A program made the position numbers and the translations under genes. The notes beneath the pieces were generated by a model. The model searched no databases and was not told the DNA's origin. It saw only the letters and a list, made by a program, of their open reading frames with translations. A stretch of 63,896 bases of DNA, the filler included. It is 11 parts of 11 records of this genome, joined end to end, with 100 filler letters (N's around TTAATTAATTAA, not from the genome) between each part and the next. Parts side by side here need not be neighbours in the genome. Positions count along the whole stretch, not along the records: positions 14,103 to 26,066 come from SRR7504441_1973; 10 more parts are not named here. The stretch is one strand, 5' to 3'. Positions 19,401-25,400 of this stretch are shown here, piece after piece; position 1 is the first letter of the stretch; every line of letters starts with the position of its first letter.

Positions 19401-22400
19401 GAGTTCAGCACGATAGCATTTGCTGCGTCCAAGCTATCCCAAGTGGCTGTCTCTGGAGTGGAAATCATACCTCCAGAAGAACTGGAGCTCGCAGGTGCTG
19501 TCACTGACCATAATGGCCTCGCAGTCATACCACATCGTACACCACCAGGGCATGCGGTGTACCCATCAGATGTGAGGGCACTGGTGAGGCACCCAGTGAC
19601 AAATGAAGTGCTCCACTTACCACTCGGCAACCTGAATTGGAACAACGTCGCGTCAGCGAAGCCATTGCACACATTTACCATCTTTGACGACCGAAAGCTG
19701 TACAAGCCGACCGAAAGTGCTTATTTCAAGGGCTACCTGCGACAGATAAGTGCTAGAGGCCAGATCGAGATGCCAGACTGCGGTAGGACTCTGTGCTGGA
19801 AAGTGACCAAGGGCCCGCTCAAGGCTGGGGAAGGCAAAACTACGCTGTCCGAAAGGTATGGATTTGATCTCAGCTGTGAGCTTCCTGCTGAGGAAGTTGG
19901 CAAGTTTGAGCTGGAAGTTTGGCTGGAAGGCGACATTGATGTAACTGCAACTCACAGCTTCGAGGTCAAGACGTTCAGAACCCCACAATATTCGGTGCAA
20001 TGCAGGGCAGTCACCGAAGGTCATCATATTGTTGGCGAGCCGCTGCAGCTCAAACTCAGTGCTGCATACTACTCAGGTGGGCCACTGCCTGGTGCTAGCG
20101 CAACATACAGGGTCTCTACCTCACCGTACAAGCTCGACTACCAGCCGCCTGGACATCCTGGGTTTACATTTTCAGGGCAACGGCCTGGAGGCGGCTCCAA
20201 TCGGGGTCTGAAGCAAGAGGTCGAAACTCTTGAAGGGGAAACCAACAAGTCTGGCGAGCACATGCTTGATCTGAGCACGGACTCGCCTGGGTATCCAGGG
20301 CCCGTGCAACTGACGGTGAGAGGTAGTATTCAGGATGTGGACCGGCAGGTCATCCCAGCCGATCCTGTCAACCTCATAATCCACTCCTCAAGCCTGTATG
20401 TTGGGCTGATGTCGTCGCCAGTGCCTGTGACGGATGCTGATGGTCGACCCTGTGCAAAGTGCGAGCTTGTGGTCTGCACATTGGATGGCGAGCGCGCTCT
20501 CGCTCCCATCAAGGTGAGGGCAAACGAGTTTGTTGAGGAAAACTACAGAAACTCCATGGAGAAAGCAGCTATTGAGGCCAAAAGGGCGATGCGTGAGGAC
20601 GACACCCGGCGTGCCAATCATGAGGTAGAACACGAGTTTGTGATTCTTGTGACTCTTGGAGAGGAGAACGAGGACCAGAGGATCAGTGTTGCTGTCAAGC
20701 AGTCCGATACCCTGTGGGTTCTGCGAAAGGAGATTGCCAAACAGCTGGCATACGAGTGGTATCAGGTAGAGCTGCATTGGGTGGACAATTATTGGTCATC
20801 TGTTGACGAGACTAAAACTTTTCGGTTCCATGGAATCGACGAGCTCTCCTGCAATGGCCTCATCTGTGCTGAGGTGATCGACAGCGATCATGCATCGAAG
20901 ACAAACTACCAGAGTGAGCACAATGTGGTTGAAGAGGTGGTCTCAGTACCTATCGACGGACCTGGTGTCTTCTTGTATCCGCTTGATCGGTGGGGCCAAG
21001 TTCGTTTTGTGGCGAGCGTTTGCGACACTATGAACCGAATTCATACAGCGTCAATCCATGAGACATTCGCAATGCCACAGCTTGATGGACTGAAGCGGAA
21101 TGCATCGTTTGCAGCCAAGGTCGACGAAACGACCAAGCGCAAGGAGTTCACAGTTTCGACTAACAAGGAGGCTAGCCATGATTATGCTGTCGGCTCTGTG
21201 GCACAGCTGTCAGTGAGTGTCCCTGCACTCGGGTATGATGCAGAGTGCCTCGTTTTATGGGGGCGCTGCACTATGGAGCACCGCGAGAGGCTTACAATAC
21301 CTGACGGGGGCACTTCTGTGGTGCAAATCGAGATCAATGAAGAAGCTGTCCCTTCTCTTGCTGTGACTGTGCTAGTGTTGCAAGCTGGCCGGCAGTTCAG
21401 CGCCTCACGTGTTCTCATGGTTTCTCGAGCAACTCGGCAGTTGGCAGTGGCCATCAAGGCACCCGAGACTGGCTCTCCAGGGGCTGAACTTGAGCTCGCT
21501 GTCGAAGTCCAGCAGCCTGATGGCCAAGCAGCTGCGGGAAGTGCCGTGGCGCTTTGGATGGTAGATGAGGCTGTTCTCGACATGGCTGGGTGCGCTTCAG
21601 CTATTGCAGCCCTAACTATGCATCCCCAGGTATTCTCACCCGAGGCCTGGTGCTTCCATCCATGCTACAGCTGGTTCTCGTCTCCGGCGGCCTGATGTAA
21701 TGGGATCTGGAATGCTCAATAATGTTTGGGAGATCCACAGTGTGGAGGTGAGCACGCCTGCACACCCGGAGAGCTAATGCTGTTGCTGCCAGATGAAATC
21801 AGGGGATGCCGCGTGCTTTGTAGCAGGCACGGAGGTGAGTTGAGCTGCTCTTGGCTCGGATCTAAGCTGTATTAGGTGACAATGGCCGATGGCCGTCGTG
21901 TCCACATCGAGGATATCAAACAAGGCGATTCAGTCTTGTCGTTTGATGCTAGTGCTGGCAAGACTGTTGCTCATCCAGTCACAGAAACCTTCGTGCACCG
22001 GGACTGTGGAGGACTGATTCATGTGGAGCTTGAAGACGACACCGAAATCACATGCACAGGAAACCACCGTTTCTGGGTGCAAGATAAAGGCTGGGTGAGC
22101 TTCAGAACAGAAGATCGCCGCGAGGCCTCGATGCAGTCTGGGGACAGCTTGCTCACTGCTGCAGGCACATGGGTCCAAATTTCCCGCATTGAGGAGCTGG
22201 ATTCTTCTGAGGATGTGTACAATATCGAGGTTAGAATCACTGCAGGAGGTGCTTGAGGGCATGTGCGACAGGTGGCTCAGACGCATTCATACTTTGCCAA
22301 CGGATTTGTAGTCCACAACAAACAAATCTTCGTTAAGACTTTGACAGGCAAGACAATAACCCTCGAGGTCGAAGGCTCTGATACAGTTGACGCCATTAAG

Positions 22401-25400
22401 GCGAAGATTCAGGACAAGGAGGGGATCCCGCCTGACCAGCAGCGGTTGATCTTCGCAGGCAAACAATTGGAGGACGGTCGGACCTTGAGCGACTACAACA
22501 TCCAAAAGGAGTCCACCCTGCACCTCGTGCTACGTCTTAGAGGAGGCGGAGGCGATCCACCTGAGATCAAGGTTCGCGAGGACTTCTCGCCTCTAGCATG
22601 CTGGTTGCCAAACTTGATAACAGGCTCCGACGGGACAGTGCAAGCCACGATCAAGCTCCCCGATAATATGACTGCATACAAAATATTCGCTGTCGCTGAC
22701 CATGGAAGCTGTCTGTTTGGCTGCGCTGAGCCTGCAATAATGAAGGTGGACATGCCTCTATCAGTCAGGCCGGCTTTCCCTCGATTTCTGTCGCTTGGAG
22801 ACCAATTCAAGCTTCCAGTGGTTGTTCACAACTCTGAAGATCAGGATGCGACTGTGACTGTGGCGGTTCGAGCTTCAGGTCTGCACGTGGAGCAGACTGG
22901 CGCGGCACTACTCGTATCTGGTAAGAACCGCAAAGAGATCCAGTTGGATGCTTGTGTTGGGGCCAGACCAGACGATCCGCTGCGTGGGTACGAGACAGCC
23001 CATATCCAGTGCGCTGCAGTGGCTGGCGAGCATGTCGATGCGTTCATCAACACATTGAAGATTCGAACCCCGCAGACTGTAGAGACATTCACCACGTACG
23101 GCTTCATGGACGGCACCTCAAAAATCACTGCTCTCAGAGTTGGGCTTCCGCCAGACGCTGTTCCAGACGAGGGTGGCTTAAAGCTCACGACAAGTCACAC
23201 CCAACTGCATGAACTAGAGCAGGTGGCATTGTGGCTAAAGAGCTACCCGTATACCTGTGTCGAGCAGCGGGCCTCCAAGGTGGTGCCCAGACTAACCCTG
23301 CACCTTACCTCGTTTATGTGCAGATGCTCTGCTTTGCGAGTCTTCTGAAGCCTCTAGCAGCATTAGGCGCCGAAGGCTTGGACGTAGAAGAATGCTCTGC
23401 ATTCGTGACTGATCTGGCTGAGAAGATTTGGAGCTGTCAGCATGAAGATGGTGGGTTTGGCTTCTGGAGCAAGGAGAGCGCCCAGTCAGTCTATGTCTCT
23501 ACTCACGTTGCACTTGCTGTGCATGCTACAATGAAGGAAGACTTCGAGCTCCCCGAGGCAACCCTCTTGCTGCATCCTCTCTAATCGACTTTTTAGGAGC
23601 TGAAAACCAAGGTGACTCAGTGGTGCCGGAACGCTCCTGCGCTGGCGGCTGCGAGGGGCGATGGCGACGACCTGTTCTTCACGACAGGTGTGCATCCATC
23701 AGATCCTACAGCAGAGCCTGAAGGCTTGGCGGTCTAGGCGAAACTGCATACTATTCGTTCGACACCCAGACTTTTCTAGTTAGCCACGCACTGTACGCTG
23801 GAGTGCTTCTTGGGGCGGACCATCCTGTAGCGTTTGAGAAGGCAACCTGCTGAGGCGGCGGTGCAGTGCTGAGACGATTTGTGAGCAGGCAGTCATCAAG
23901 CTGGTGAATCTTGCTTCGGAGCATGCCGGTGGCGGCTCTGGGGAGCAGCTGCGCCTAACATCGCTCCATCCCGAGTCGCTGGCGCTCTTGTCGCTGGTGC
24001 TCAATCATGCAAAGCAGCAGCACTCGAGCCAATACCAGGTCCCTGTTTCATAGACTGCCTATTGATGATGCATCCAGGCTGAGCCTTCATGCCCTGAAGA
24101 GGCCGAGGGAATCCATACCAAGCTGATCGAATGCAGCGAGCAGCGAGCAGTGCTGGAGGCCTCCGCTGAGCAACAGGATGTTAAACATGCAATGCTGAGC
24201 AGCATCGATGCTGAAATTGAGTTCTGGGGAAATAAGCTGGCTGAGCTAGAGGCCCCTGCACTCGATGCAGAGATCACTGTATACATTAGACACGGAGAGA
24301 AAATCGAGCCTGTACTGATTTCCGAGAGCGCACTCCTTCCTCATCTCAAGAAAAAGGTGATTGCCGAGGTCTCGTCCGATCGGTTTAGGCGCTGTCAGGT
24401 GGCATGCTGCATGGCACTGCCGACCTCAGCCCAGCTGCTGAGTTTCAGGAAGCAGCCATTGTCTGGCGTTTCACCACTGTCCTCGTATGGCATTGGAGAG
24501 GACTCGGTAATTACGCTCACTGTGCTTGAGCTGCCAACATCGGCCCACATGGAGCAGGTGCGGATTGCCTGAATTATCCGAATTAGCCAATTGCAGGTCG
24601 AGCTTTACTCTTCTAAATTGCTGTCTGCTCTGTGCAACATGTGTGACGAGACGTCAGCCAAGGCGTTCTTTGGCCATACATACAGAGATGGAGCTTCAGT
24701 GGCTCTACATAGCTCCGACCGGACGAATGCAATGGCACTGCTAGCGCTGCTCACAGACAGACCGTCCAACGACCTGATTCCCAAGCTGGTACGCACGCTG
24801 CTCGCGACCAGAAAGCAGGGGGGGCGCTGGAGCACCACTGCGGCCTCCTCGTGGGTGGCTTACGCGCTTTCCCGTTACTTTGATGCGGTCGAAGATGGCC
24901 AGCCAGAGTTCTGCTATCGCGTGTGGCTCCAAGCAAATTTTGTGGGTGGAGGCAAGATTGAAGGCTCGCAGCCAAAGCCCAAGCAGCTCCAAATCTCGGC
25001 CGAGATGCTCCGAGATTCGGGTGCGAACCCGAGGCTTGCCATCCAGAAGCAAGGCAGCGCTGGTCGGATGTACTATGCCGCCACAATGCGTACAGTGTCA
25101 CGGTCGCCGATGGTACCGGCTCAATCGCGTGGGTTCAAGGTTGAACGAACGCTCTGCGAGGTTCAAGGGCAGAACAGCAAGAAGTCTGTGTTTGCGGCGT
25201 CGGAGCTCGGGGTGGCTGATGCCGATTGGGTTGTGCTGGCTGGGTCAAGTCTGCGGGTGAGGCTCACGATGAGCAACACGAGCACCCGGCACCACGTCGC
25301 GCTGGTCGACCACCTGCCTGCGGGGTTCGAGCACGTGAGCAATCGGCCGTACTATCGTGGAGCCAGCCACTGTGACAAGCTGGATGATCGGATCCAGTAC

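Follow-up and report, generated by a model that had tools for sequence, protein, structure and literature searches.

Proteins of the alpha-2-macroglobulin (A2M) and complement fold are machines that have to be cut in order to fire, and to our knowledge their trigger is always an outside protease. Ubiquitin precursors, such as polyubiquitin and the ubiquitin-ribosomal fusions, have their ubiquitin released by ubiquitin-specific proteases. Amongst the type I bacterial A2Ms (E. coli ECAM/YfhM and Salmonella SaA2M; 4RTD, 4U48), the disordered bait of ECAM spans Arg923-Leu942 in MG8, and a cut there frees the bait from its tether, upon which the thioester domain is released (PMC4498604). In the BUBL proteins of ciliates, such as Tetrahymena thermophila BUBL1 (BIL2, 6Y75/6TMM), a Hint domain is flanked by two ubiquitin-like domains, of which it activates the upstream one at its C-terminus (PMC8616854). 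Type A BIL domains are described in PMC4031507 as forming an N-terminal thioester and being cut by Asn cyclisation, with cleavage products predominating and ligation of the flanks via the freed amino group being possible. In a window of 63,896 nucleotides (the whole stretch of DNA analysed here, filler included) we identified a gene, located on a single assembly contig (14103-26066), that is predicted to encode a bacterial-type thioester A2M of ~2,970 residues with a Hint domain and a ubiquitin in its bait region.

Pfam matches were computed on unspliced exon translations, and place the insert in the order A2M_BRD, 46-residue linker, 141-residue Hint, 76-residue ubiquitin and A2M. On the N-terminal side, the A2M_BRD match (2.6e-12, profile positions 8-140 of 140) runs to the last residue of the large exon, the end of which aligns to the bacterial VVDEAxLAL motif; an MG2 match on this exon (0.0031) was below the cut-off. 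On the C-terminal side, A2M (PF00207) was matched at 2.1e-16 on the exon 22272-23277, and the thioester motif YPYTCVEQ, with CVEQ at 23256-23267 and a putative bond, is present here as well as in the orthologue P0272 described below. With A2M_BRD plus A2M, Cys-x-Glu-Gln and bMG10, the protein shares the features of the type I bacterial A2Ms, whereas in place of their disordered, protease-accessible bait it has a linker and two folded domains, Hint and ubiquitin. It further differs from them in its N-terminal and internal ubiquitin-like domains, in its 13 short introns and in the absence of the bacterial lipoprotein signal at its predicted N-terminus.

The position of the insert was determined by comparison with bacterial relatives. 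A search with the A2M flank amongst proteins of 427-2,000 residues returned 116 matches, comprising P0272, which was the best at 60 % identity, and 115 bacterial A2Ms, the nearest of which was 43 % identical. None of these 115 contains a Hint domain and none is annotated with ubiquitin; thus, the cassette was not inherited together with the A2M. The bacterial consensus reads VVDEAxLALxGYxLxDP, followed by a variable stretch and then IxxRxxFxPLAxF. In the 18 of the 115 bacterial proteins for which a motif search located both anchors, these are 60-182 residues apart (median 89.5), as against 279 residues here and 279-287 across the three eukaryotic sequences. A phmmer search of the PDB with the A2M flank returned no match, and mapping was instead performed via P0121, a bacterial fragment that was the single match of a search restricted to similar length. 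By this route, the sequence directly 3' of the insert aligns to SaA2M (4u48) residues 955-1058, which, set against the bait of ECAM given above, puts the cassette in the C-terminal part of the bait. The bait-region placement claimed in the original prediction was therefore upheld, both by the bacterial alignment and by the SaA2M mapping.

The catalytic set of the Hint domain consists of Cys1, TGNH as the block B T-x-x-H, a terminal His-Asn and a Lys at position +1. By Cys1, T-x-x-H, His-Asn and the non-nucleophilic +1 residue it is, at the level of sequence, type A BIL-like, sharing these features with PT-HINT (2LWY), in which +1 Cys, Ser or Thr is also lacking. It differs from the described type A BILs in belonging to a eukaryotic gene with spliceosomal introns, in having an A2M bait as its host and ubiquitin as its neighbour, and in being known from sequence alone. 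Cys1 is conserved in all three A2M orthologues and in P0132, a relative outside the A2Ms; block B reads TNGH in P0272, TAGH in P0124 and TSNH in P0132, and the +1 junction is HN/K here, in P0124 and in P0132, and HN/M in P0272. In the PDB, the Hint matched 8w20 (1.4e-8), a bacterial protein with an intein C-terminal splicing domain, 2lwy (8.2e-6), a bacterial intein-like domain, and 6y75/6tmm (2e-5), the Tetrahymena BUBL BIL2. With ciliate BUBL it shares a Hint beside a ubiquitin-type domain, Cys1, the block B His and the terminal Asn; however, BUBL has ubiquitin-like domains on both sides of the Hint, whereas the upstream partner here is the N-terminal half of an A2M and the only downstream partner is a near-canonical ubiquitin ending in GG. 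A canonical intein was rejected on the grounds that the +1 residue is Lys or Met rather than Cys, Ser or Thr, and that the C-extein begins with ubiquitin and not with A2M. In Hedgehog/Hog proteins, the Hint is followed by a sterol-recognition region and lacks a terminal Asn; this identity was likewise rejected, as the present Hint ends in His-Asn, is followed at once by ubiquitin and scored 27.6 bits against the Hint profile PF01079, below the cut-off of 29.7.

The Met1 of the embedded ubiquitin is replaced by Lys, which is at the same time the +1 residue of the Hint, whilst Lys 6, 11, 27, 29, 33, 48 and 63 and the LRLRGG tail are all kept. For comparison, 1,166 polyubiquitin units were taken from the matches of a search for homologues of the complete exon (end of the Hint, ubiquitin and A2M), which was dominated by polyubiquitins, the 120 matches listed covering 21-42 % of the query. 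The embedded ubiquitin is identical to the commonest of these units at 70 of 76 positions, as is that of P0124, and the ubiquitin of P0272 at 72 of 76. Gly76 is followed by Gly, not by Pro, in all three A2M orthologues, and ubiquitin-GG followed by a residue other than Pro is the pattern of precursors that are cut by ubiquitin-specific proteases. Like the products of ubiquitin precursor genes, the protein thus holds a near-canonical ubiquitin with GG and a non-Pro residue in a larger polypeptide; unlike in those, the ubiquitin is internal, preceded by a Hint, begins with Lys in place of Met1 and sits in a functional loop of its carrier. All four domains that the original prediction had read from the spliced protein (A2M_BRD, Hint, ubiquitin and A2M) were matched by the Pfam hidden Markov models, and its account of the Hint and ubiquitin anatomy was borne out both by Pfam and by the catalytic residues.

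The same architecture, for which the original prediction had proposed a search of other proteomes, was found in two further sequences. P0272 is a Trinity transcript in EukProt, encoding 1,719 residues in the order BRD, linker, Hint, ubiquitin and A2M, with bMG10 in addition (Pfam); P0124 is a continuous metagenome open reading frame (ORF) of 503 residues that runs from the end of A2M_BRD through linker, Hint and ubiquitin into A2M. The identity to P0272 and P0124, respectively, is 40 and 33 % in the BRD flank, 29 and 28 % in the linker, 48 and 50 % in the Hint, 88 and 93 % in the ubiquitin, and 60 and 58 % in the A2M flank. The linker is weakly conserved except for an NVW-I--V motif, and is predicted to be disordered in a low-confidence model of P0124. 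The P0272 protein is cut off at its N-terminus and hence 5'-truncated; its residues 1-15 presumably represent a translated sequencing adaptor, and its N-terminus is therefore regarded as an artefact. A search of the protein atlas gave no usable match.

Relatives of the Hint exon were searched for in the full library, which yielded 2,513 matches at E ≤0.001, of which the best 150 (P0122-P0271) were examined. Amongst these 150, the four best relatives consisting of a single stretch (P0124, which ranks first of these, P0132, P0140 and P0144) all adjoin ubiquitin, which, together with the PDB match to Tetrahymena BIL2, agrees with the link to BUBL proteins drawn in the original prediction. P0132 (343 residues) has a Hint-Lys-ubiquitin unit in a non-A2M context, and its RLRGG is directly followed by a run of prolines; ubiquitin followed by Pro is not cut by most ubiquitin-specific proteases. 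In P0140 and P0144, ubiquitin-GG lies upstream of the Hint. The relatives that rank higher carry their Hints in tandem arrays; in one of them a subtilase is also present, and in another a bacterial deaminase toxin domain. True BUBL-like arrays were found in P0161 (source name Nonionella stella) and at several metagenome loci. Judged solely by the ranking of Hint scores, the cassette would be BUBL-type in origin.

Using a profile built from five cassette Hints, we recovered 202 full-length related domains in 119 of the proteins examined. Cys is the first residue in 185 of the 202, and 184 end in His-Asn; in these 184, the +1 residue is Lys in 72 cases and Ser, Thr or Cys jointly in 43. Lys is by a wide margin the commonest residue after His-Asn in this Hint subfamily, often in tandem arrays that read VHN-K-G-C-F. 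Such a preference for Lys at +1 would not be expected of intein-like domains and might have a bearing on how they react. As Lys follows in 72 of 184 cases, the change from Met1 to Lys in the embedded ubiquitin looks like the +1 preference of the Hint family; P0272 keeps Met. Metagenome contigs were additionally scanned with a degenerate pattern for the Hint-ubiquitin junction, which gave 29 matches at 28 loci; nine matches at eight loci (L003, L007, L011, L015, L016, L017, L019 and L024) are real, and all of these have Met at +1. A2M flanks were present at none of these eight loci. The other 20 matches were rejected as chance His-Asn codons before a ubiquitin start, as were, for chance, the two loci returned from viral contigs. 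Six loci (L007, L011, L015, L016, L017 and L019) are long arrays of alternating ubiquitin-GG/Cys-Hint-HN/Met-ubiquitin units, with at least five Hint copies in L016 (tblastn). L003 (1215-1253) and L024 (1353-1391) have an identical junction, in which ubiquitin ends in RLRG and is followed by a conserved domain beginning MISTFTS; at L004 (4476-4514), ubiquitin is fused to this domain without a Hint.

The gene model (Table 1) was built from stop-to-stop frames, intron candidates and joints in RNA contigs. Eight of the 13 introns appear as such joints, two of them at the Hint insert and six downstream, whilst the start codon and the introns 16786-16829, 17774-17818 and 24558-24596 are predicted only. 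The RNA evidence came from four marine metatranscriptome runs (X1-X4) belonging to four studies, in which the shares of the runs are small (0.05-0.18).

Table 1. Features of the A2M-Hint-ubiquitin gene and of the window that contains it (positions count along the window)
Feature	Position	Strand	Description
Spacers	3579-3678, 10311-10410, 14003-14102, 26067-26166 and six further places		
Whole gene model	16459..25931	+	14 exons, 2,971 codons, 0 internal stops, 13 short introns
First exon (predicted)	16459..16785	+	Starts MGSCNST; divergent ubiquitin-like domain
Large exon	17819..21589	+	N-terminal macroglobulin domains; ends in A2M_BRD
Intron 1	21590..21629	+	40 nt, GT-AG; read-through leads to a stop at 21693
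Linker exon	21630..21747	+	Most of the 46-residue residual bait linker; starts YSHPRP
Intron 2	21748..21792	+	45 nt, GT-AG; spliced in RNA contig X4 record 26
Micro-exon	21793..21834	+	42 nt, in frame; N-extein junction and Cys1 codon (21814-21816)
Intron 3	21835..21875	+	41 nt, GT-AG; spliced in RNA contig X4 record 26
Hint core	21876..22229	+	Block B TGNH; PT-HINT 1.1e-10, Intein_splicing 1.2e-10 (Pfam)
Intron 4	22230..22271	+	42 nt, GT-AG, unusual GTTAGA donor, in-frame stop
Hint C-terminal 16 residues	22272..22319	+	End VVHN
Ubiquitin	22320..22547	+	76 residues, KQIFVK...RLRGG; Pfam ubiquitin 1.3e-31
A2M re-entry	22548..23279	+	Same exon as ubiquitin; macroglobulin domain hosting the bait, to CVEQ
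Last exon	24597..25931	+	bMG10 (Pfam 1.8e-20) and stop codon; X1 RNA contigs cover most of it

At the insert, X4 record 26 (256 nucleotides) joins 21745 to 21791 and 21832 to 21874, which corresponds to introns 2 and 3 as predicted; as it spans both, the linker, the Cys1 micro-exon and the Hint core are connected in RNA. Further RNA pieces are near-identical to the gene, namely X1 record 1 (561 nucleotides, four differences, covering 22588-23148) and X1 record 7 (490 nucleotides, two differences), or show no difference at all, as do X3 record 17 (228 nucleotides) and X4 records 24 and 25 (151 nucleotides). No RNA contig from the four runs covers intron 1 or the region 17700-19907. Over the ubiquitin, the RNA depth rises to 35,699, which derives from the ubiquitin of other organisms. 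The junction of ubiquitin with A2M lies inside one DNA exon and therefore needs no splicing. Introns 1 and 4 are supported by the spliced model, which aligns without gaps to P0272 and P0124 at these sites, and once intron 4 is taken out, the C-terminal motif of the Hint is regained and is colinear with that of the orthologues; a CTAAY-like branch motif, present in introns 1-3 and in the intron 23280-23323, is missing from intron 4. The four GT-AG introns of 40-45 nucleotides named in the original prediction could thus all be located (40, 45, 41 and 42 nucleotides), and its peptide strings are all present in the sequence or the spliced model. When set against RNA, its splicing pattern held for introns 2 and 3, which are seen removed; intron 1 lies outside the RNA coverage, and intron 4 is seen only in unspliced form. 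The 42-nucleotide micro-exon carrying Cys1 is flanked by phase-0 introns, such that skipping it keeps the frame and removes the Hint nucleophile. This skipping is a possible splicing switch; the micro-exon is included in X4 record 26, the single RNA contig seen there.

The N-terminal part of the gene bears on where the protein resides. The ubiquitin-like domain of the first exon was matched by the Pfam ubiquitin profile at 1.6e-9 (37.8 bits, the cut-off being 25.4) and is 30 % identical to the embedded ubiquitin (tblastn). A second divergent ubiquitin-like domain may lie next to it (16830-about 17100). No signal peptide and no hydrophobic stretch of at least 18 residues was found in the gene model with its predicted start, and the beginning MGSCNST resembles what we take, by the motif rule and for this predicted start, to be an N-myristoylation site. 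The protein is thus probably cytosolic, and its beginning suggests that it is perhaps lipid-anchored, both of which depend on the predicted start.

The reading that we favour, with about as much belief as doubt, is that the cassette may serve as a built-in processing or trigger device, which would open or rewire the bait without an outside endopeptidase. Its chemical steps, as well as the cellular location, are drawn by analogy with studied BIL domains and ubiquitin fusion proteins. The Hint would turn the GDAA/C peptide bond into a thioester by an N-S acyl shift, its terminal Asn would cyclise and thereby cut HN/K, and ubiquitin-specific proteases would cut the Gly76-Gly bond. The bait loop would in this manner be opened, or else rewired by ligation of the N-terminal half to ubiquitin, with no attacking endopeptidase being involved. 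The expected products are an N-chain and a C-chain held together non-covalently, a free Hint and a usable ubiquitin, an outcome that would resemble processed C3/C4 or cut insect TEP1. Processing is favoured because the catalytic residues are intact and conserved here, in both A2M orthologues and in P0132. Selection on the architecture is indicated by an ORF that is intact, transcribed and spliced, and by an order that is kept despite a linker identity of 28-29 %. The precursor-like character of the ubiquitin, which matches at 70 of 76 positions, keeps its seven Lys and LRLRGG and is followed by Gly, argues in the same direction, as does the predicted cytosolic location, given the lack of a signal peptide or hydrophobic segment and the N-terminal ubiquitin-like domain. 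The original prediction had offered three options, and those in which the Hint cleaves the bait itself as an internal trigger, or in which two chains arise, the first ending in a conjugatable ubiquitin, fit better than the third, a bait tuned to deubiquitinases that would be covalently trapped.

A number of observations weigh against this built-in processing. In those A2Ms that have been studied, cutting the bait causes the thioester to fire and hence spends it (PMC4498604), and a constitutive bait cut would need to follow a different logic. Every processing step is predicted rather than biochemical, and the cytosolic location hangs on the predicted start codon. The near-invariance of the ubiquitin exceeds what a mere cleavage handle would need, and, with Lys at +1 in two of the orthologues and Met in P0272, they do not all keep one and the same ligation chemistry. 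Gly76 and the next conserved strand are only 6-9 residues apart, and so short a tether might hinder the access of a ubiquitin-specific protease. At the RNA level, X2 record 11 (151 nucleotides) retains intron 4, with a stop eight codons on, and no RNA contig from the four marine runs has intron 4 spliced. Finally, an AlphaFold2 model of P0124, made from a 20-row alignment, reached a mean pLDDT of 57.7 and a pTM of 0.30, with the ubiquitin below 65, and was left unused.

We consider it unlikely, although a case can be made, that the ubiquitin is itself the bait, such that a ubiquitin-specific protease, for example one introduced by a virus or an intracellular bacterium, would cut after RLRGG, set off the A2M conformational change and be captured covalently by CVEQ. 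The ubiquitin does sit at the scissile bait position of the bacterial relatives, this protein and P0272 both have an intact thioester motif, and the surface residues and tail recognised by such proteases are part of what is near-invariant. The short tether after Gly76, a difficulty for processing, could on this account shield the site from the bulk of cellular enzymes. However, the protein is predicted to be cytosolic, and the ubiquitin-specific proteases of the cell itself, which cut ubiquitin fusions in that compartment, would be expected to cut after GG. This weakens the proposal, for which the protease partner and the infection context are purely hypothetical. Nor does it give the conserved Hint a necessary role, unless, as may be the case, the Hint first splices itself out and leaves only ubiquitin in the loop; type A BILs are able to ligate their flanks, yet cleavage, not ligation, dominates in those studied (PMC4031507). 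In its fullest form, which strikes us as distinctly unlikely, marine protists would possess a cytosolic complement-like thioester protein with a ubiquitin bait, in which a foreign viral or bacterial deubiquitinase springs the trap and is captured, the Hint arms the loop and the ubiquitin-like domains route the complex to degradation.

We are quite doubtful of a further alternative, a conjugation reaction resembling that of BUBL, in which the Hint thioester would be attacked by the +1 Lys, by another Lys of the ubiquitin or by a foreign protein, leaving the N-terminal half joined through an isopeptide bond. The protein would thereby gain another covalent warhead in addition to CVEQ, or else an N-chain with a conjugatable ubiquitin at its end. 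There is precedent in BIL2, which forms a Lys isopeptide and, with no need for ATP, transfers its N-extein onto several substrates (PMC8616854), and which our Hint matches in the PDB at 2e-5. The residues before Cys1 are small (DAA, GAG and GGG), like those of a ubiquitin tail, and Lys occupies +1 here, in P0124, in P0132 and in the 72 of 184 related Hints ending in His-Asn noted above; P0272, however, has Met there. Furthermore, the N-extein in BUBL is a ubiquitin-like domain, whereas here it is an A2M half of 1,727 residues, and the acceptor is purely hypothetical.

That the cassette is a tolerated selfish or relic insertion, a self-removing Hint-ubiquitin unit that was copied from a BUBL-like array into a disordered loop and has no function for the A2M, appears improbable. 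Hint-ubiquitin units do exist in other contexts (P0132, P0140, P0144, P0161 and the eight junction loci), and no part of an A2M tolerates insertions as well as the bait, as seen in the variation of bait length from 60 to 182 residues in the 18 of the 115 bacterial relatives for which both anchors were located. Self-removal, on the other hand, would leave the bait, which is the functional trigger, broken or altered; three diverged orthologues have retained the unit, its catalytic residues intact, and no eukaryotic-type relative without the insert was present amongst the 116 matches of the A2M-flank search, which covered proteins of 427-2,000 residues. A chimeric contig joined via conserved ubiquitin has next to no plausibility: the window does come from a metagenome-type assembly of concatenated contigs, ubiquitin draws thousands of foreign RNA contigs and the ubiquitin-A2M junction is bridged by none of the RNA contigs listed from the four runs, but the flanks are two halves of one colinear A2M, an RNA contig joins linker to Hint, the C-terminal end of the Hint is encoded in the same exon and frame as the ubiquitin and the A2M domain, and the same order recurs in the independent assemblies of P0124 and P0272, such that three independent assemblies make a chimera very unlikely.

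Our literature search, which extended to publications outside subscription journals and supplements, found none joining a Hint domain, ubiquitin and A2M, and, within the same scope, no relevant publication on an intein or intein-like domain in a macroglobulin bait or on HINT autoprocessing of a thioester macroglobulin. This suggests that the presence of Hint and ubiquitin in the bait is new both for the A2M family and for BUBL-type cassettes; the combination is conserved and mechanistically suggestive, with a function by proposal only. What distinguishes it is that the trigger loop holds two modules with covalent chemistry of their own, a predicted self-cutting Hint and a protease-cleavable ubiquitin. 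Should the cassette be able to open the bait unaided, a thioester protein could be matured or fired by a new route in a compartment without secretory convertases; if the ubiquitin is the bait, the protein would be a sensor for deubiquitinases, and should foreign deubiquitinases indeed set it off, it would be a trap that responds to an entire class of pathogen effectors, and the A2M/C3 fold would have a new trigger. The gene also shows the rare BUBL-type pairing of Hint with ubiquitin outside polyubiquitin-like arrays, represents a bacterial A2M rebuilt by a eukaryote, and offers, in about 500 residues, a compact test object for intein, ubiquitin and A2M biochemistry.

With regard to the window as a whole, it consists of assembly contigs joined by spacers of 44 N, TTAATTAATTAA (a 12-base stop linker) and a further 44 N, and contigs that adjoin in it therefore need not adjoin in the genome. 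An Rfam scan of the window found no RNA family. The host is a marine single-celled eukaryote with many introns of 39-50 nucleotides and a G+C content of ~55 % around the gene. Within the thioester-domain region, a weak ubiquitin-like domain was noted at 24399-24557 (Pfam 0.013); P0272, which has two ubiquitin stretches, contains it as well. Lastly, two introns of the gene, 23558-23596 and 23842-23888, are of the GC-AG and not the GT-AG type, and both are backed by RNA joints.

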